Origin: Escherichia coli | GTDB taxonomy: Bacteria; Pseudomonadota; Gammaproteobacteria; Enterobacterales; Enterobacteriaceae | NCBI RefSeq assembly: GCF_011045215.1 | Contig: NZ_CP049201.1 | Length of the DNA stretch: 64,000 bases | Direction: 5' to 3' (one strand) | Shown: piece after piece, positions 7,212 through 18,337 of the stretch | Numbering within the stretch: the stretch's first letter is position 1 | How the letters are laid out: each line of letters begins with the position of its first letter | Notes under the pieces: generated by a model | Told to the model about the DNA's origin: nothing | Seen by the model: only the letters and a program-made list of their open reading frames with translations | The model's database searches: none | Made by a program: the position numbers and the translations under genes

Positions 7212-9611
7212 ATGCCCTCAGAAGGATTACGTTTCACGCTGTCGGTGGACGGTATCGTGGAGATGGCGACGGCGGTGGTGAGCTTCCGTCTGTACCAGCA
7301 CCACTGCACGCCGTTCATCCTGGATGTGGATATCGCCAGCGGGCTGTCTGACCTGACGGCGGAGGATTTTCTGGAGAAGAGCGCGGTGCTGACGGTCTGG
7401 CAGGGTGATATCCCGCAGCGTTACGTCAGCGGTATCGTGACGGAGGTGCAACTGGGGGAGAACAACGACTGGCAGATGCGTTATTCCCTGAGCATCAGCC
7501 CGCCGCTGTGGCGGGCAGGGTTACGGCAGAACTTCCGTATCTTCCAGCAGCAGGACATCCAGACGATATCAGCACAGCTTCTGAGAGAGAACGGAGTGAC
7601 GGCATGGATGCCGCTGTTTTATGAAGACCATCCGGCGCGGGAGTTCTGTGTGCAGTACGGGGAAAGCGACCTGGCGTTTCTGGCGCGGCTGTGGGCGGAG
7701 GAGGGGATTTTCTTCTTTGAGCGGTTTGCGGCGGACAGTCCGGAGCAGAAGCTGACGCTGTGCGACGATGTGGCGGGGCTGTCACAGGCGGGAGAGCTTC
7801 CGTTTAACCCGGACACATCGGCAGGAGCGGAGACGGAGTGTCTCAGTACGTTCCGTTATGAGGCGCATGTCCGCCCGTCGTCGGTGCAGAGTCAGGATTA
7901 CACGTTTAAGGTGCCGGACTGGCCGGGGATGTATGAGCAGCAGGGTGAGAACCTGAACGGACAGCTGGCGCAGTACGAGATATTTGATTATCCGGGAAGG
8001 TTCAAGGATGAGCAGCACGGCAAGGATTTCACGCTGTACCAGATGGACAGCCTGCGCAGTGATGCGGAAAAGGCCACAGGGCAGAGTAATTCACCGAAGC
8101 TGTGGCCGGGAACGCGGTTTACGCTGACGGGGCATCCGCAGAAGATGCTGAACCGTGAATGGCAGGTGGTACAGAGCATACTGTCAGGAAGCCAGCCGCA
8201 GGCGCTGCACGGCAGCCAGGGGAGGGGAACCACGCTGGGAAATCAGTTAGAGGTGATACCGGCAGACCGGACGTGGCGTCCACGGCTGCAAAGCAAACCG
8301 AAGGTGGACGGGCCGCAGAGTGCCATTGTGACCGGGCCGAAGGGTGAGGAGATATTCTGCGACGAACATGGCCGGGTACGGGTGAAGTTCCACTGGGACC
8401 GTTATCACGGGATGACGGAGGCGAGTTCATGCTGGGTGCGGGTATCGCAGGCGTGGGCGGGGCCGGGGTTCGGTAACCTGGCGATACCGCGGGTGGGCCA
8501 GGAGGTGATTGTTGACTTCCTGAACGGCGACCCGGACCAGCCCATCGTCACGGGACGGACCTACCATGAAGATAACCGCTCCCCGGGCGACCTGCCGGGA
8601 ACGAAGACGCAGATGACGATACGGTCGAAGACCTATAAAGAAAGCGGATTTAACGAGTTGCGGTTTGAAGACGCCACCAGTAATGAGCAGGTGTATATCC
8701 ACGCGCAGAAGAACATGGATACGGAGGTGCTCAACGACCGGACAACGGATGTGAAGCATGACCATACGGAGACCATTGGTAACGACCAGAAGATAACGGT
8801 GGTGAAGGGGCAGACGGTTGAGGTCGGGACCAGAAAAGAAGGAGGCCACGACCAGAGTATCACGGTGGCGAACGACCGGAGCATAACGGTACGTAACGAC
8901 CAGACGCTGAAGGTGACAAATGACCGGACGGTGAGCGTGAGTCACGATGACGGTCTGTACGTCAGAAATGACCGTAGGGTGACGGTGAAAGGGAAGCAGG
9001 AGCATAAGACGACGGGTAACCACATCAGCCTGGTGGAGGGGAAGCACAGCCTGGAGGTGAAGGGGGACCTGGCGGAGAAGGTGAGTGGCGCGCTGGGGAT
9101 AGAAGTGGACGGGGATATCGTGCTGGAGAGCAGCAGCCGGATAAGCCTGAAGGTGGGTGGCTCGTTTATCGTCATTCAGCCGGGCGGAGTGGATATTGCC
9201 GGGCCGAAGATAAACCTGAACGGTGGGGGCAGTGCGGGGACACCGGTGGGGACGATGCAGCCGGCGGTGCTGGAGGCTCCGGAGGATGAGAGCAGTGATG
9301 ATGGCAGTGATGACTCCGGAGAGGATAGTGGCAATCCCGCAGGGAGTGACGGAGGAGGTGATGGCGGTGACGATGAAGATGATCCTGAAAAATATACCCT
9401 CCAGTTCCATTTTACGGACGATGACGGGATACCGTATTCAGAGACGCAGTATATTGCCTTTTTTGAGGATGGCACACAGACGCGTGGTGAAACAGACAGA
9501 GAGGGATATACAGAAATATTTTATACAGATACAGCACAGGAAATTAAAGTCCAATTGTTATTTTCGGATGCTTTTTATATTGAGCCGGAGGGGCATTATG
9601 GCAGGGAATAA
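7212..9611 (+). CDS. vgrG: T6SS spike protein VgrG with acidic linker and C-terminal extension
   Basis: 799 aa; gp27/gp5-like core, beta-helix repeats (NDRT.. repeats), acidic stretch EDESSDDGSDDSGEDSG, then about 70-aa C-terminal tail. Confidence 0.9.
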   Translation: MPSEGLRFTLSVDGIVEMATAVVSFRLYQHHCTPFILDVDIASGLSDLTAEDFLEKSAVLTVWQGDIPQRYVSGIVTEVQLGENNDWQMRYSLSISPPLWRAGLRQNFRIFQQQDIQTISAQLLRENGVTAWMPLFYEDHPAREFCVQYGESDLAFLARLWAEEGIFFFERFAADSPEQKLTLCDDVAGLSQAGELPFNPDTSAGAETECLSTFRYEAHVRPSSVQSQDYTFKVPDWPGMYEQQGENLNGQLAQYEIFDYPGRFKDEQHGKDFTLYQMDSLRSDAEKATGQSNSPKLWPGTRFTLTGHPQKMLNREWQVVQSILSGSQPQALHGSQGRGTTLGNQLEVIPADRTWRPRLQSKPKVDGPQSAIVTGPKGEEIFCDEHGRVRVKFHWDRYHGMTEASSCWVRVSQAWAGPGFGNLAIPRVGQEVIVDFLNGDPDQPIVTGRTYHEDNRSPGDLPGTKTQMTIRSKTYKESGFNELRFEDATSNEQVYIHAQKNMDTEVLNDRTTDVKHDHTETIGNDQKITVVKGQTVEVGTRKEGGHDQSITVANDRSITVRNDQTLKVTNDRTVSVSHDDGLYVRNDRRVTVKGKQEHKTTGNHISLVEGKHSLEVKGDLAEKVSGALGIEVDGDIVLESSSRISLKVGGSFIVIQPGGVDIAGPKINLNGGGSAGTPVGTMQPAVLEAPEDESSDDGSDDSGEDSGNPAGSDGGGDGGDDEDDPEKYTLQFHFTDDDGIPYSETQYIAFFEDGTQTRGETDREGYTEIFYTDTAQEIKVQLLFSDAFYIEPEGHYGRE

Positions 9612-10401
9612 TAATACTAGTGGGACTTCACAACCCGAGTCGCAAGTATGTGTAGTACCGCAAAAAATTACAAATAAATTTAAAATAATGATGAGTAAGG
9701 CTTGTAAAGCACAGAAAATGGTTTTATTGAAAAGAGCAGATGATATTATGTCATGGGAGGGGGAACAACAACGAGATTTTATTAAAGTTTTTGGCCTTAA
9801 AGGCGAGGACATTATAAAAATCAGAAAGGTTGGGGAAGATACTGGGAAACGAATGCAAGCGAGACTATTCATAATGGATGGCATCAGACAAATAATGACG
9901 ATTGCAAATGGTTTGACGATCGAAAGCTATAAAGATTATACGAACTGCAATGAATTTGCTGCTTTTATTAGTCCACATCTTGATCCTCCTTACATTGTAA
10001 ATATCGGAGCGCATTTTGAATACAGACATGGTATAAAACAGTCGGTTACAGGTAGAGACTCTCATGTAAGTACACTTTGCCATGAAATGTCCCATATATT
10101 TTGGTATTGGGGTGACAATCAAAAAGGTGGTATGTGGACTCAGGATTATACGGGTATTAATAAGTTCGCAACAAGTAATAAGGATGAAGTTAGCTATGAG
10201 AAACATGTTTCAGTGGCTAATGATCTGGTTACATTGCGTAAAGATCAGTTATTTGAGAATGCATATAATGTTGAAAGATATTTTTATATAAAATTAAATG
10301 ATGAAGATATTGAAGCTCAAGATGAGAATATGTTAGCAAAAAAAGTAGAGGATAAAATAAAAGAGATAGAAAAATGTTTTGATGAGTTGATGGGGAAATA
10401 A
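9598..10401 (+). CDS. putative T6SS effector, HExxH zinc-metallopeptidase-like
   Basis: Start overlaps vgrG stop by 14 nt; HEMSH motif (LCHEMSHIFWYW); AT-rich versus GC-rich vgrG; the longer listed ORF 9223-10401 is an in-frame read-through of vgrG sequence. Confidence 0.6.
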   Translation: MAGNNNTSGTSQPESQVCVVPQKITNKFKIMMSKACKAQKMVLLKRADDIMSWEGEQQRDFIKVFGLKGEDIIKIRKVGEDTGKRMQARLFIMDGIRQIMTIANGLTIESYKDYTNCNEFAAFISPHLDPPYIVNIGAHFEYRHGIKQSVTGRDSHVSTLCHEMSHIFWYWGDNQKGGMWTQDYTGINKFATSNKDEVSYEKHVSVANDLVTLRKDQLFENAYNVERYFYIKLNDEDIEAQDENMLAKKVEDKIKEIEKCFDELMGK

Positions 10402-10402
10402 G

Positions 10403-11242
10403 ATGAAGAGGTTGGCTTTCTATAATCTAAATTATGTTGTACTGATGGTTTTTTTTCTTTGTTTTTTGCCATTATCTATTGCAATTGCAATAGATAATGA
10501 GAATCTTTTTGTAAAAAAATACAGATTCGGTTTTGAACGAAGAAATGACAATGGGAAACCAATTATTTATCTTAGCCATAATTTAGCGCCAGAGGAAAAT
10601 ATAAGTAATGAATTAACAAATGATGTTGTTGTTAAATTGGTGGTTAAGCCACATGCTGAAAATATTTTAGCTACTATAACTTTTTATAACAGTAGTACTA
10701 AATCGTATTTTCTCCCCAGAATATATTATCCAAAGAACTTCCAAAAAGGAAATGGAGATGTATTTGATGCTTTGTGTGATGACGAATTCTTGATTACATC
10801 AGGAAATATTAGCTTAGACTATCTAGGAGGCTTTTGTCCCTTTGAGCTTGATTTGAATTTGAGCCGATGGGTGGAAATTACGGCAGGTAAAAAAATATCT
10901 TTTGATGTAAAATTGAATGATATGCATTCATTTCTCCCCAGTTTAAATAATTATCATATAAAAACATTAAACTACAAACTTGTTAGGAGAAAATGGTTTG
11001 TATTAAAATCAATTAATGAAACATTCCTCTCTATTTTGATGAAAAGATACTCATGTAATGAATATGATTTTAGAGCTATATCATTTAGTGGAGAGGGATG
11101 TGATAATTATGAATTTGATAAAAATACGTTTTTTTTTGTTAATCAAATATTAGATAAAGATGATGAGCAACATTCTGTTCATATTAGGTCTAATGAATTT
11201 TCCATCAATATCGATGGAAGCTTGGTAAAGCAACCTTATTGA
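10403..11242 (+). CDS. putative cognate immunity protein (exported or membrane-anchored)
   Basis: Starts 2 nt after effector stop; N-terminal hydrophobic signal/anchor (VVLMVFFLCFLPLSIAIA); AT-rich. Confidence 0.5.
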   Translation: MKRLAFYNLNYVVLMVFFLCFLPLSIAIAIDNENLFVKKYRFGFERRNDNGKPIIYLSHNLAPEENISNELTNDVVVKLVVKPHAENILATITFYNSSTKSYFLPRIYYPKNFQKGNGDVFDALCDDEFLITSGNISLDYLGGFCPFELDLNLSRWVEITAGKKISFDVKLNDMHSFLPSLNNYHIKTLNYKLVRRKWFVLKSINETFLSILMKRYSCNEYDFRAISFSGEGCDNYEFDKNTFFFVNQILDKDDEQHSVHIRSNEFSINIDGSLVKQPY

Positions 11243-11299
11243 TTAAAATGTATCGCAGGTTTTATTTTCTGTAATGCTGGTGCATGTGCGTAAATATTT

Positions 11300-11730
11300 C
11301 TTAAGAGCCGGAAACACCTCTTCCGCCTTTATCGACGATAAACCTACCGCCAGAACCGGTGATGCCATTGACTGCGGTGGCGTGGTTAAAGGTGGAGGGC
11401 GATGTGGTGCTGGAGAGCAGCAGCCGGATAAGCCTGAAGGTGGGCGGCTCGTTTGTGGTCATCCATTCAGGGGGCGTGGACATCGTCGGGCCGAAAATCA
11501 ATCTCAATAGCGGCGGTAGTCCGGGAACGCCGGTGCCGACGCTGCAACCGGCGGTTCTGAAAGCGCTGGCAGATGATAAAAGTTTAGCGGCTGAGCAAAA
11601 TGATAGTAATGCATCGTCCGATCAGAATGATAACAACGATGAGGGTGAGGAAGCGCCAGAAAAATCGGTGTGTAAGGAGTGCCTGAAAAGGGCGCAAGAA
11701 GCCGCCGCCGTTTTTGCGCCTCGTGGATAA
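11300..11730 (+). pseudogene. PAAR 3' fragment fused to vgrG 3' fragment (deletion scar of a second PAAR-vgrG copy)
   Basis: 11310-11398 is near-identical to PAAR 3' end (7090-7180); 11398-11560 near-identical to vgrG 9120-9280; a distinct C-terminal tail follows. Confidence 0.7.
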
Positions 11731-11736
11731 GGGAGA

Positions 11737-12506
11737 ATGACAATGATAACAGTATCGCCACACGCTACCGATCAAGACAAATATATTATCTGGCTGAAGC
11801 AAGCTGAATCATTCTGTTCTGCCGCTGGTTTGGATTACATAGATGTGCTTGTTGACCAGGCTGGAACCGACCAACCTTTGCAAAATGATATGCTTCATCT
11901 GTCGCCAGCCATTCACTGGTATGCCCTGTTTGAAGGAACGCCTGAAGCTGAGACGATGGAGTATTCCCCTGTAGTGTTACGCCTGTACTTTGCGCTCAGT
12001 AGCCATCGCAAATTTCTGGCACAACTGATGGCGTCATTTGCTGATACGCCGCGTCTTACTTTGTTGATATCCCCTCTTACATTCGACCTGCTGGGCGGCA
12101 TCTTCAGGTATTGTCACAGGTTCAGTGGGAAGAACAGACCGGATTGCTGCGTTACTATGATAATCGGGTGTTCCCTTTACTGTTCACACATGTTTTGACT
12201 AACGAGCAGCAGGCGACATTTACTGATATTGCGTTGTTCTGGAGCTGGTTAGACCGTGATGGTGAGATTAACTGGAAATCAGGAAGTTTTTCACCAGAAC
12301 GCAGGCTTACTGACAACCCGGAGATGAATCGGGTGGATGATGTACAGGTGGGATTGATGGGCTGTATCTGCGACGCTGAAGTCCTGATGAAGGAGAAAGC
12401 AGTCAGTGAACTCAGTCAGGAAAGCTATTTTGCCCACTGTCTTGATATTGCTTTCAGGGCCAATGACGCGAAATATTTCGGAGCTTTGCGGGACTTCGAA
12501 GGATAA
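11737..12506 (+). pseudogene. hypothetical T6SS accessory protein (adaptor-like position), apparently frameshifted
   Basis: Two overlapping ORFs (11737-12198, 12111-12506) in different frames, directly after the vgrG tail fragment. Confidence 0.35.
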
Positions 12507-12819
12507 TATTGTGGTGATGTACGGGGAGATTTATCTGTTTAAAAGTCCGTAGCTGTTAATATCAAGAGATAATCGTGAAATAAACGGAAAATCAAGCTCG
12601 ACATGTAATGGTAGTATCCATCATGTTGCATTTGTGTTCGATCGTAATGTCAGTTCACTTGGCTGCAATATATTTTGCGTAATATCATCAATGCTCTGTC
12701 GATATTCCAATGTGTGACAATCGAAAGATATGCATTTTATTTGCTTCTATGTCAAAACTTTATTGTCGTAGAAACAATACCCATCAATTAAAATCTCTCA
12801 AAGTAAAAGAACCAGCAAC

Positions 12820-13362
12820 ATGTCCAGCAAAATAAGAAATGGAATGAATATAACAAAAGTAGTTAAAGGCTGTCTGGTATTAATTTTGATGGTGATTTCT
12901 GGTTGCTCAGCAGATAATTACGACGATTATACTGCAGGTGATCTCCGGGCAATAAATCATATTAAAGGTATCAGTATTAATTGGTTCACCGTAAATGGTT
13001 ATCGGGTCCATGGTTTGGGCGGTGGATATTGCTGCATAATGTTACCAAAGAAGTGGCATTCTGGATTAAAAGCCCGGATCGAGTGGGAAGTAGACCCGAC
13101 CCCCCTTGAACCTATTGCAATGAAAAAAGAAGGTTTTGGCTATGAAGAAGATGCTTATGCTAAACATGCTGCAAATTATCAAAAATATAAAGTAATTGTT
13201 GACATCCCGGAATACGGCGCTGAACGTTGTGGCCTGACCGTTCATTTTCTGCCGTGTAATCAGATTAAAGTGACAACCGTCTGCGAGGGCTATGGCACAC
13301 CGAATTATCCTATCAAAGAACCCCGCGAGATGAAGGAACCTGCAACATGTCCAGCAAAATAA
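12820..13362 (+). CDS. lipoprotein, candidate Tle1 immunity (Tli-like)
   Basis: Lipobox ISGC after signal peptide; Cys-rich periplasmic domain; 3' end overlaps tle1 start. Confidence 0.5.
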   Translation: MSSKIRNGMNITKVVKGCLVLILMVISGCSADNYDDYTAGDLRAINHIKGISINWFTVNGYRVHGLGGGYCCIMLPKKWHSGLKARIEWEVDPTPLEPIAMKKEGFGYEEDAYAKHAANYQKYKVIVDIPEYGAERCGLTVHFLPCNQIKVTTVCEGYGTPNYPIKEPREMKEPATCPAK

Positions 13363-15440
13363 GTGGTCTGGCTTTTCCGTGTTATGCCCCCCCGGTGTTC
13401 CCTGAAGATGGGCGATTAATATTATCTGAAGCGCAGGTAAACGCGAACTACCTAAAACAAATCAATAAAACAGAAGAGCACAAAACCAACTGTAGTAAAC
13501 AGGCTGGATTTAGAATTGGCTTTACGTGTAATCAAAGTATGCATATTAGTCTGTTTTTTGATGGTACAAATAATAATGAATATAATGACACTCCTGGACA
13601 CCCAACCAATATTGCCAAACTGTTTCATACGACCTATCAGAACGCAGAAGAACAGGGATATTTTAACTACTATATACCGGGTGTAGGCACACCATTTCCC
13701 AAGATAGGTGAAATGGATTACAGCAACAGCGGGCTGGAGTTCGCTACTGGTGGTGAAGATCGAATTAATTGGGCATTATTACGCCTCGTGGATGCCCTGA
13801 GCTATTCCATTGACCCTTCCCATAAGCGACTGGATGATAATGTGGCAAAAGAGCACATTCCTCTTATGCGCGCTCCCTGGCCTATGACTGGTGAAGTGAA
13901 TCGTCGCAATGTGATTAACCCCTACCTGGAAAAATTACAGGGACTGTTAGAGCAAGCCAGTCCGCGCCTGCTAAACGTAAAGCTGTTTATCTACGGATTT
14001 TCCCGTGGCGCAGCGGAAGCACGAACTTTTGTTAACTGGTTGACTCAGTTAGCTTGCCCGCAGGAGCAACAGGTGATGCTGGCCGGGTTAGCTGTCAGTA
14101 TTGAGTTTTTGGGGCTGCTGGATACCGTAGCTTCTGTGGGGGCGGCGCATGTTTTACCGGGCGCTGCCGGTCATATGGGATGGGCCGATAGTACTCAGCA
14201 ACTCCCTGATGAGAGGCAGTTTCCCGGCCTGATTAAATGCTGCCGCCACTTCGTTGCCGCGCATGAGCAGCGGCTGTGCTTTCCGCTGGATTCAATCCGT
14301 CGTCCAGACGGAAATTATCCTTTAAATGCAGAGGAAATTATCTATCCGGGGATGCACTCTGATGTCGGTGGTGGCTATCCCGTTCGCGATCAGGGGAAGT
14401 CCTGTGGTGACTCAGGCGAAATTCTTTCTCAGATAGCACTGCATGATATGTATCTTGCTGCATTTGATTCAGGAGCACCACTTGCTGTTTATTCTAAATT
14501 TGTTACTCCATTAATAAAAGGTGTGTCGCCTCTGCGAATTATGAGTCCTTCTAGCGTAAAGGAATTTACGATTGCTAATTCATTAACAAAACGCTTCAAC
14601 ATCTGGCGACAAACGCTGCTGAACACCACCTTGCAGGGTACAGAAGAAATGATTGATACGAGGGAAGGTTATCACTCCTATCAACTTGCCCAGGTTCTTG
14701 AAAGCGCAATTAGCGATCAGATCGGCTGGATCACCGCCTGGCGTATCGGTCGCTATGCGAATAACAGCCTTCTTGTGCAACCTTTTTATATTAAGGCGCC
14801 ACAGCTGGATAAAGATGGACTTGATAAAGAGGCTAAAGCGCGTAAAGAACAAATGGAAAATATTGAAAAAGAGCGGGCGAACAAGCAGAAAGGGAATGGC
14901 ACACTTGATGAAAGTAATCAGGGCATTCCTATCCTTGACCCAACCAATGCTCAGTATCAGTTGCGAGAGGCAGCCCGAGAATTTCAGAGCGATTATAAAG
15001 GATGGACGCGCGATATTAACGGCAGCGTCATGGAGAAAGCCATTCAGATTCTTGTGGATGTCATTCCTAAATATCCGGTGTATCTGATTAATGGCGATGA
15101 TGAAGCAAAAGAATATCAGCAAATTAAGGCTATGGGAGACGGACTCTATCCACAATTTTTTATTGATTCACTGGGAACGGGAACGCGTACTCAGCCATGC
15201 GCTGAATTACTGGCCCTCTATGATGACCAGGTTCACGACTCCCGCGCCTGGTTTATGCAAAGTTCGCTGGGTGGACGTGAACCCTGGGGCGGTTATTTTC
15301 GCTACCGCATGATTTACTTCGGTGATGAGGCTAATAAAGAGCTGAAGCTAATCTCTGCAGATGGCAAAGTTGTTGGCGATCAGCCCACATCCAACCGGGT
15401 CATTTATTGGATGGAATCGAAAACGGTGAGCCGAGGTTAA
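13347..15440 (+). CDS. tle1: T6SS phospholipase effector, Tle1 family (DUF2235 alpha/beta hydrolase)
   Basis: 697 aa; GxSxG lipase motif in YGFSRGA; located in the vgrG island. Confidence 0.75.
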   Translation: MSSKISGLAFPCYAPPVFPEDGRLILSEAQVNANYLKQINKTEEHKTNCSKQAGFRIGFTCNQSMHISLFFDGTNNNEYNDTPGHPTNIAKLFHTTYQNAEEQGYFNYYIPGVGTPFPKIGEMDYSNSGLEFATGGEDRINWALLRLVDALSYSIDPSHKRLDDNVAKEHIPLMRAPWPMTGEVNRRNVINPYLEKLQGLLEQASPRLLNVKLFIYGFSRGAAEARTFVNWLTQLACPQEQQVMLAGLAVSIEFLGLLDTVASVGAAHVLPGAAGHMGWADSTQQLPDERQFPGLIKCCRHFVAAHEQRLCFPLDSIRRPDGNYPLNAEEIIYPGMHSDVGGGYPVRDQGKSCGDSGEILSQIALHDMYLAAFDSGAPLAVYSKFVTPLIKGVSPLRIMSPSSVKEFTIANSLTKRFNIWRQTLLNTTLQGTEEMIDTREGYHSYQLAQVLESAISDQIGWITAWRIGRYANNSLLVQPFYIKAPQLDKDGLDKEAKARKEQMENIEKERANKQKGNGTLDESNQGIPILDPTNAQYQLREAAREFQSDYKGWTRDINGSVMEKAIQILVDVIPKYPVYLINGDDEAKEYQQIKAMGDGLYPQFFIDSLGTGTRTQPCAELLALYDDQVHDSRAWFMQSSLGGREPWGGYFRYRMIYFGDEANKELKLISADGKVVGDQPTSNRVIYWMESKTVSRG

Positions 15441-16275
15441 GTTCATAAGATTGAGGGGTTGGTGACCGGGAAAATGTAGACATGTAGTGCCTATTCACCC
15501 CAGTTCAAACCCATCCGCATCCCGCCATGCCGGAAACTTCACACTGTACTCCCAGGGAAAAATCACGTAATGCTGTTTTTTTTGTACTAAATAATTCGCA
15601 TTTTATGTTCAATAATTGAGGTGTTCCTTATTACCTAAAGCTGTTTTTCATTGCTTATACATGATCAAATACTCATTGCATAATTAAGGGGGACAAAATG
15701 GAACTTAAAAAATTGATGGAACATATTTCTATTATCCCCGATTACAGGCAAGCCTGGAAAGTGGAACATAAATTGCCAGATATTCTATCTGTTAACTATT
15801 TGCGCCGTTATTTTTGGTGCATAAGGCTGGGAAGATATAGATGATTTGGGGAAACACATCCCGATTTTTTGAAGTGATATGGTGATTTTGAAAATGGTAT
15901 TCCTGTTCACGATATCATTGCCAGAGTTGTATCCTGTATCAGTCCTGCAAAATTTCATGAGTGCTTTATTAACTGGATGCGTGACTGCCATTCCTCAGAT
16001 GATAAAGATGTCATTGCAATTGATGGAAAAACGCTTCGGCACTCTTATGACAAGAGTCGCCGCAAGGGAGCGATTTATGTCATTAAAATCCGTCTTCATA
16101 TTATTTGCGATGTCCCTGATGAACTTATTGATTTCACGTTTGAATGAAAAGGGCTGAAGAAATTATGCATGGCAGTCTCCTTTCGTTCAATAATAACAGA
16201 ACAAAAGAAAGAGCCAGAAATGACGGACAGATATTATAGCATTTCTGCTGATTTAACCGCAGAGAAGTTCGCCAC

Positions 16276-18337
<2,062 letters not shown>

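Follow-up and report, generated by a model that had tools for sequence, protein, structure and literature searches.

Direct repeats flanking a tli1 lipoprotein gene in Escherichia coli probably represent the inter-cistronic junction of tli1-tle1 operons

A short direct repeat brackets a lipoprotein gene directly upstream of the phospholipase effector gene tle1 in a 64,000-nt stretch of Escherichia coli DNA (contig NZ_CP049201.1 of assembly GCF_011045215.1), which is referred to here as the window. Comparison with related loci makes it likely that the two repeat copies are two instances of a conserved inter-cistronic junction in the tli1-tle1 operon, which encodes an immunity protein and an effector of a type VI secretion system (T6SS). 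On this reading, the last ~10 codons of each tli1 gene (M-K-E-P-x-x-C-P-x-K-stop) would double as the translation-initiation region of the next gene. The Lys-Glu codons AAG-GA(A/G) would serve as the Shine-Dalgarno (SD) sequence, the ATG would be made up of the third base of the codon before Cys and the TG of the Cys codon, and the Tli stop codon would lie 13-16 nt within the next gene. The window itself would be a contracted one-copy array, in the order leader, module, tli-C, module, tle1. The features concerned, all on the + strand, are as follows.

12507..12805, +: leader of haplotype 1, non-coding, separating tla from the first junction module, with no significant tli similarity
12806..12836, +: repeat copy 1, the junction module that ends the non-coding leader, AAAGAACCAGCAAC-ATGTCCAGCAAAATAA-G
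12820..13362, +: tli1, the type 'C' paralog, predicted DUF3304 lipoprotein immunity gene, 180 aa, with an alternative start (Met9) at 12844
13333..13363, +: repeat copy 2, the tli-to-tle1 junction, with SD GAAGGAA at 13332-13338, the tle1 ATG at 13347 and the tli TAA at 13360-13362
13347..15440, +: tle1, T6SS phospholipase effector, intact, 697 aa, with a poly-C tract at 13387-13393

The repeat and the genes that overlap in it

The 25-nt sequence CC(A/T)GCAACATGTCCAGCAAAATAAG matches exactly at 12812-12836 and 13339-13363, with no third site in the window. A direct repeat of about 25 bp had been proposed in an earlier examination of the DNA letters (the sequence-only reading), and it is present at both positions when they are recounted by alignment. 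With up to three mismatches allowed, the chance expectation for a 25-nt repeat is 0 (0 matches in 100 shuffles). The repeat can be extended to 31 nt with two mismatches (12806-12836 versus 13333-13363, a spacing of 527 nt), and the copies share the exact 22-nt core GCAACATGTCCAGCAAAATAAG. They bound the DUF3304 lipoprotein open reading frame (ORF), which, like tle1, opens with ATG-TCC-AGC-AAA-ATA (MSSKI). The common MSSKI start described by the sequence-only reading therefore holds for both ORFs, with the qualification that the Tli protein may instead start at an in-frame Met9 (12844). The lipoprotein ORF also ends within the repeat, as had been claimed, its TAA (13360-13362) falling inside copy 2.

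The product of tli1 matches the full Pfam model of DUF3304 (PF11745, E=2e-24, residues 45-151). It carries a lipobox, ISGC, read from the sequence as ...LVLILMVISG-C29 (Cys29 at 12904-12906) and kept in homologs. A search at E<=1e-5 returned 362 Tli homologs, and PF11745 was found in 120/120 among the matches listed. DUF3304 proteins are established Tle1 immunity proteins (PMC13133936, PMC5649205, PMC6691524), and neutralisation of the cognate Tle1 has been shown for Tli homologs of Klebsiella pneumoniae and Vibrio cholerae (PMC5649205, PMC6691524). Domain, lipobox and the neighbouring tle1 identify the window gene as a Tli1-family immunity gene, in keeping with the immunity role first suggested for it, and its product is predicted to neutralise Tle1. 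Tle1 itself has a catalytic domain (DUF2235; PF09994, E=1.4e-25) and a C-terminal domain (PF22137, E=6.7e-59) by Pfam, and its GxSxG motif is visible in the translation as GFSRG. It aligns with the solved Pseudomonas aeruginosa Tle1 (PDB 4O5P) at E=2e-117 over residues 11-677, with query residue 11 paired with chain residue 7.

The Tli tail as a dual-coding junction

Junctions and tails were compared across 11 taxa, and 16 loci (L001-L016) were inspected. The Tli tail ...M-K-E-P-A-T-C-P-A-K-stop carries both the AAGGA SD and the ATG of the next cistron, giving the tli1 and tle1 ORFs a 16-nt overlap, and the same tli-tle1 arrangement is found in all 11 taxa. Nucleotide conservation of the junction across genera follows the pattern ATG-AAG-GA(A/G)-CC-N6-ATG-(T/C)CC. 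The third base of the codon preceding the tail Cys is A in 32/32 tails, the codon being any of ACA, TCA, ATA, CAA, GCA and GTA, which encode six different amino acids. Similarly, the tail Lys codon is AAG in 30/30 tails, compared with 234 AAA and 59 AAG (~20% AAG) among the other Lys codons of the same tli genes. The motif K[EGA]PxxCP is present in the tails of at least 102 of 120 homologs, among the matches listed. These codon-level patterns show the repeat to be a dual-coding junction under selection, in which the Tli tail is predicted to double as SD and start codon of the next cistron.

Genes starting MS(S/G/R)(E/K)(I/M) overlap the preceding tli by 16 nt, and those starting MSGLRF by 13 nt. 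The upstream tail fixes the first five codons of the following gene (CPAK-stop gives MSSKI and CPVK-stop gives MSSEI). Strain A30 has a synonymous tail change, GCA to GCG, that turns Tle1 residue 4 from K into E. The sequence-only reading had also raised the prospect of a mis-started tle1. This is contradicted by the conservation of the start, since tle1 begins at the tail-embedded ATG in 11/11 taxa, and the solved P. aeruginosa Tle1 aligns in register.

Gain and loss of tli units in E. coli

Among 5,426 complete E. coli genomes surveyed, the locus was present in 69. The number of tli copies between tla and tle1 varied among them as follows.

0 tli copies: 1 genome, AP027877 (L001, strain 2018-05-2CC)
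1 tli copy: ~10 genomes
2 tli copies: ~4 genomes
3 tli copies: ~54 genomes

Copy-number variation of the lipoprotein cassette in related genomes, which had been named as a check on the repeat, was therefore found in E. coli over the range of 0-3 copies. Throughout the E. coli arrays, neighbouring genes overlap by 16 nt and every boundary carries this same module. Because the module recurs at every unit boundary it can act as recombination homology, and together with the conserved 3' ~170 nt of tli it would allow the array to expand, contract and be reshuffled through unequal recombination or slippage.

One case is L001, the closest relative of the window (99.7% identity in tla, leader and tle1), which equals the window minus exactly one repeat-to-repeat unit of 527 bp. 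Window 9519-12836 aligns to L001 1022-4337 and window 13333-16275 to L001 4307-7247, the two alignments sharing the 31-nt repeat. More distant E. coli lineages carry tli-C in the same position. A recent precise deletion in L001 would be the parsimonious reading, because distant lineages keep tli-C at this position while the nearest relative of the window is without it. The module with its 22-nt exact core would support such a unit loss, whether mediated by RecA or by slippage; the choice of mechanism and the direction of each event are what we infer from the alignments, not part of the observed differences.

The reverse order of events, in which the 5' end of tle1 received a mobile tli cassette with duplication of ~31 bp of target, would make the zero-copy L001 ancestral and the window derived. 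L001 does have the form of an exact 'empty site' (leader, one module, tle1), and the unit is flanked by direct repeats. However, the 527-bp unit encodes only Tli and has no transposase, integrase or terminal inverted repeat, 31 bp far exceeds usual target-site duplications, and the repeated sequence is the conserved Tli coding tail in 11 taxa. Parsimony also points to a deletion in L001, given the distribution of tli-C. Insertion of a cassette into tle1, one of the two origins that the sequence-only reading had offered for the repeat, is thus improbable.

The other origin it offered, duplication or exchange of immunity cassettes through the repeat, fared better, in that cassettes are lost, gained and exchanged there: copy number ranges from 0 to 3, breakpoints are exact to the repeat, two loci differ by precisely 527 bp, and one leader occurs with three joints. 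Identical leader-1 and module sequences are followed by tli-C in the window and L004, by a tli-B-like gene in L009, L010 and L012, and directly by tle1 in L001. Copy 2 of L003 is a clean hybrid, 100% type B to ~nt 400 and 100% type C beyond, which indicates an unequal crossover in the conserved 3' block. The paralogs A, B and C, which stand together as an A-B-C array in strains such as NC101 and MS1170, are 67-82% identical overall and 25-60% in their variable middle segments; identity rises to 83-100% over the final ~170 nt and approaches 100% at the junction. As aligned here, the differences among natural variants are of whole units, and the breakpoints fall on the module or within the conserved 3' block next to it.

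Such exchange could be the work of an integron-like system, with the repeat as an attC-like site and a recombinase shuffling tli cassettes. A repeated element of ~30 nt at every cassette boundary and one leader joined to different cassettes are what it would produce. This is nevertheless very improbable: a recombinase gene was found in 0/16 loci, the element lacks hairpin potential and is less structured than shuffles (z=+2.09), the hybrid breakpoint lies inside the conserved 3' block and not at the module, and dual coding already explains the conservation of the element.

It is likewise unlikely that the repeat is purely a by-product of coding, with protein conservation of the Tli tail and gene overlap making the copies identical, the repeat having no role in recombination, and copy number changing through the longer 3' tli homology or horizontal transfer. 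Conservation of KEPxxCP as protein (at least 102 of 120 homologs, again among the matches listed) and recombination of the B/C hybrid within the ~170-nt conserved block fit such an account. Yet the leader/first-tli and last-tli/tle1 boundaries share only the 31-nt module, and it is there that the L001 deletion and the joints of leader-1 to C, to B and to tle1 fall. In addition, copy 1 has no upstream ORF to constrain it, yet is still identical to copy 2 over 22 nt.

All reduced-copy leader-1 arrays belong to one lineage of 12 E. coli genomes, in which a vgrG-M35 module has displaced the original vgrG. Other decay is evident in this lineage, namely a tla frameshift in the window and two insertion sequence (IS) elements.

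L004 7276-8244: IS903B insertion in tle1, strain EC2641
L010 2062-2759: IS1A insertion in a tli-B copy (IS1 family), FDAARGOS_943

Relaxed selection may be what makes array variation visible in these genomes.

Predicted translational coupling and the Tli start

At the tli-tle1 junction, the SD GAAGGAA stands 8 nt 5' of the ATG (dG, the free energy of pairing, -5.7 kcal/mol), and the region is less structured than 199/200 shuffles (z=+2.09). As in coupled overlapping gene pairs, the upstream ORF contains the SD and start codon of the downstream gene. Translation of tle1 would accordingly be coupled to that of the preceding tli, because the SD and ATG are inside the upstream ORF, the region is unstructured and immunity precedes toxin. 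Coupling had been suggested by the sequence-only reading, and the 16-nt overlap, the GAAGGAA SD and the unstructured region make it plausible. An RNA hairpin hiding the SD or start was considered and rejected, as folding of the junctions did not surpass that of shuffles and was poorer at the tli-tle1 junction. An internal promoter in the leader was likewise rejected: promoter-like matches (12) did not exceed the expectation from shuffled sequence (8.4±3.3).

The overlap could in principle permit a programmed -1 frameshift instead, in which slippage of tRNA-Lys on A-AAA-TAA, at the stop of Tli, yields a Tli-Tle1 fusion. The E. coli tle1 frame is indeed -1 relative to tli, and an A precedes the AAA Lys codon before the stop, so that re-pairing is possible. 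We consider this hardly credible: conservation of the slippery context is lacking (it reads G-AAA-TGA in Hafnia and Rahnella, C-AAA-TAA in Serratia), no stimulatory structure is found at the junction, and a fusion of lipoprotein and Tle1 would send the toxin to the producer's own periplasm.

The start of Tli itself varies among loci. Initiation at Met9 in the window would give a canonical lipoprotein signal peptide of ~21 aa. 'Long' Tli N-termini are found repeatedly, in E. coli, Gibbsiella, Hafnia tli2, Salmonella, Kluyvera and Citrobacter; in them MS or MP is followed by ~8 residues of poor conservation, then by an internal Met and a canonical signal peptide. The internal Met is preceded by a strong SD in Salmonella tli4 (dG -9.4) and by TAAGGAG in Hafnia tli2 (dG -9.3). 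First-copy tli genes, as well as the tli copies of Serratia and Pseudomonas, have their own unrelated starts, and RefSeq annotates either start for near-identical tli genes. The MSSKI extension on Tli is probably secondary, because Tli homologs often have independent starts. The sequence-only reading had held that conserved independent starts of both genes in homologs would speak against its view of the repeat; this applies to tli, many copies of which start independently, and not to tle1, the start of which stays embedded in the tail.

Points against the junction reading

Several observations weigh against the interpretation given above. The window holds a single tli, and its status as an array rests on its relatives. 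The zero-copy state is known from one genome, and the 'frameshift' in tle1 of that genome (C7 to C6) may be a sequencing error. The counts of 32/32 and 30/30 come from sampled taxa that share ancestry, and the events are not independent; amino-acid replacements that keep the A before Cys are informative despite this. At the first junction of the window, the SD before the embedded ATG (12820) is weakened (AAAGAA, dG -0.9), and that of Met9 (12844) is also weak, only AUGGA at zero spacing. The weakened first-junction SD is common to all leader-1 loci, and the only immunity gene of the window may, judging from these motifs, be poorly translated from its MSSKI start.

Finally, repeat copy 1 resembles a Tli tail, with the same weakened AAAGAA, but has no tli body 5' of it, and outside the 31 nt the leader has no significant similarity to tli. 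Superficieibacter does hold a fossil tail in its leader (E=5e-8). Copy 1 could be such a fossil, or could have arisen through a module-by-module deletion. That the whole leader is a decayed tli copy was rejected: local alignments against five tli units, with the repeat left out, were not above shuffles (marginal z=2.45 versus type A), and nhmmer reached no better than E=1, where the leader ends.

Other genera and tle1 vestiges

A scan of contigs for Tle1 gave four loci, in Pantoea, Rahnella, Hafnia and Superficieibacter, with Tle1 67-71% identical. Breadth was added by a Tli homolog search and four contigs, and loci of Salmonella, Serratia, Pseudomonas and Gibbsiella were also compared. The junction is conserved across all eight genera, and the order in all of these loci is vgrG, DUF4123 gene, a tli array of 1 to 5 copies, tle1. 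Hafnia has up to five tli copies, and Salmonella and Pseudomonas four; these are tandem, diverged paralogs beside a single effector, as in an immunity array.

Remnants of tle1 occur between the immunity genes to differing extents. Every tli in Pseudomonas is followed by an ORF of 94-124 codons that matches Tle1 residues 1-50 (66-78% identical) and 439-464; by their alignment, these ORFs are internally deleted tle1 remnants. The vestige after the Tli tail in Serratia reads MSQIKVGL versus MSQINSGL, that in Salmonella covers ~24 nt, and in E. coli the similarity to tle1 ends at 17 nt, i.e., the overlap plus one base. Pseudomonas, Serratia and Salmonella thus have vestigial effector fragments between immunity genes, as found in stacked orphan-immunity arrays. 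Arrays would arise when tli(-tle1) modules are stacked or duplicated and the upstream tle1 copies are then lost, leaving tle1 5' vestiges that range from ~100 codons (Pseudomonas) down to the 17-nt overlap (E. coli). This graded series fits published models of module stacking and exchange (PMC6691524, PMC5361080).

Two of the loci have further features at their tli genes. In the Pseudomonas region with the tle1 remnants (L015 3755-5884), an uncalled fourth tli lies directly upstream of intact tle1. In Gibbsiella (L016 3219-3974), the DUF4123 ORF ends in a Tli-tail module (...LMTEPATCPVK-stop), the module being fused to a non-tli gene, and the first tli starts at the embedded ATG because this ORF ends in the junction module.

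Tli proteins of the window, L002, L005-L009, L012, L013 and L016 were compared as possible mosaics. The paralogs combine two variable segments, V1 (~aa 40-80) and V2 (~aa 100-135), between conserved blocks. Identities in V1 and V2 are 45% and 97% for Ec_C versus N96_2, 94% and 17% for Haf1 versus Rah2, and 85% and 20% for Pan1 versus Haf5. Across genera, 10/12 combinations of V1 and V2 types were seen, judged by eye, which suggests reassortment of putative specificity-determining segments.

A broader idea would make the Tli tail a selected, recombinase-free 'universal joint' that forces immunity-before-toxin coupling and puts the same short homology at every boundary. Modules of tli(-tle1) from different strains and genera could then be stacked, excised and reshuffled, V1 and V2 included, and the immunity repertoire quickly retuned. 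We put this forward tentatively, and regard it as rather doubtful.

Neighbouring genes in the window

Upstream of the leader, the window contains the following.

7212-9611: complete vgrG, followed by an M35-like metallopeptidase ORF (ending at 10401) and a 279-aa ORF at 10403-11242
11359..11730, +: vgrG 3' fragment, remnant of the vgrG that once headed the vgrG-tla-tli-tle1 operon
11737..12506, +: tla1, DUF4123 adaptor/chaperone for Tle1 (Pfam), frameshifted in the window

It looks as though a vgrG-effector (M35-like) module, the one common to the 12-genome lineage, displaced the original vgrG of the tla-tli-tle1 operon. The tla1 frameshift is the loss of one G at 12093-12095 (GGG in the window versus GGGG in seven other E. 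coli loci). Because of this frameshift in the DUF4123 gene, the Tle1 adaptor of this strain is probably non-functional. Both genes typically linked to tle1, vgrG and the DUF4123 gene, are upstream of it in the window, but the former is a 3' fragment and the latter frameshifted; both are intact in relatives.

The poly-C tract in tle1 is a C7 homopolymer spanning codons 14-16, and its C6 form in L001 would point to an inactivation site prone to slippage or else to an error of sequencing. Within the leader, a 41-aa ORF (12710-12835) ends ...KVKEPATCPAK-stop only through running into repeat copy 1; it is probably not a gene and could be mis-annotated as one. Downstream of tle1, a 1954-bp IS21-family element (16276-18229; istA 17121-18143 and istB 16342-17124, minus strand) sits in an ISAs1 transposase pseudogene and is not in L001-L004.

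Significance and comparison with known systems

The junction explains why gene callers disagree on Tli1 starts (MSSKI... versus MRAIF.../MNITK...) and why tli and tle1 have five codons in common. The 3, 2, 1, 0 series in E. coli means that immunity repertoires at the tle1 locus change by precise gain and loss of units at a ~30-nt joint, which bears on strain compatibility in T6SS-mediated competition. The invariant embedded ATG (32/32) and AAG (30/30) suggest that immunity and toxin are translationally coupled, with immunity translated first. These results refine the picture of T6SS effector-immunity evolution and do not change it.

Earlier publications already describe tli1 genes in tandem upstream of tle1, and vestigial pieces of effector genes lying between immunity genes. 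K. pneumoniae HS11286 has four tli1KP genes upstream of tle1 (PMC5649205), and the order in P. aeruginosa is vgrG4a-tla1-tli1b-tli1a-tle1 (PMC13133936). The loci described here are like these in their gene families and order (vgrG, DUF4123, DUF3304 gene(s), Tle1), in variable tli number and in having some pseudogenes; the window differs in its single tli, broken tla and truncated vgrG. The papers on those arrays describe neither a tail-encoded SD and ATG junction nor precise contraction, and in our search of the Tle1/Tli1 literature we met no description of an SD and ATG embedded in the tail, of their conservation at codon level or of a precise contraction series. Enteroaggregative E. coli Sci-1 Tle1/Tli1 has an immunity protein of another family, DUF2931, encoded downstream of tle1 (Shiga toxin-producing E. 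coli preprint), and was hence not used as a comparator.

In the V. cholerae Aux5 cluster, two DUF3304 genes precede a Tle1-like effector and enclose a vestigial tleV, an arrangement read as module exchange (Crisan et al. 2019, PMC6691524). The same vestige pattern is seen at the loci of Pseudomonas, Serratia and Salmonella, whereas the E. coli vestige is only the 17-nt overlap, in frame with the next tli. According to the sequential displacement model for T6SS orphan-immunity arrays, a displaced effector decays and its immunity gene is kept (Kirchberger et al. 2017, PMC5361080). Such arrays, and the orphan modules of Rhs and contact-dependent inhibition systems, resemble those described here in having diverse immunity genes by one effector, recombination at conserved sequence and effector remnants. 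In contrast to them, the immunity genes here are upstream of their effector, homology is provided by a short dual-coding junction and not by a conserved effector core, and contraction of the array is documented as well as growth. Translationally coupled overlapping cistrons (reviewed in PMC12548453) share the downstream SD and start in the upstream ORF and an upstream stop past that start, but the 13-16-nt overlap here exceeds the common ATGA and TAATG types, and coupling is predicted from the sequence. The tail-embedded SD and ATG and the contraction series are therefore refinements of a known kind of locus, the T6SS immunity array, and not a new system.

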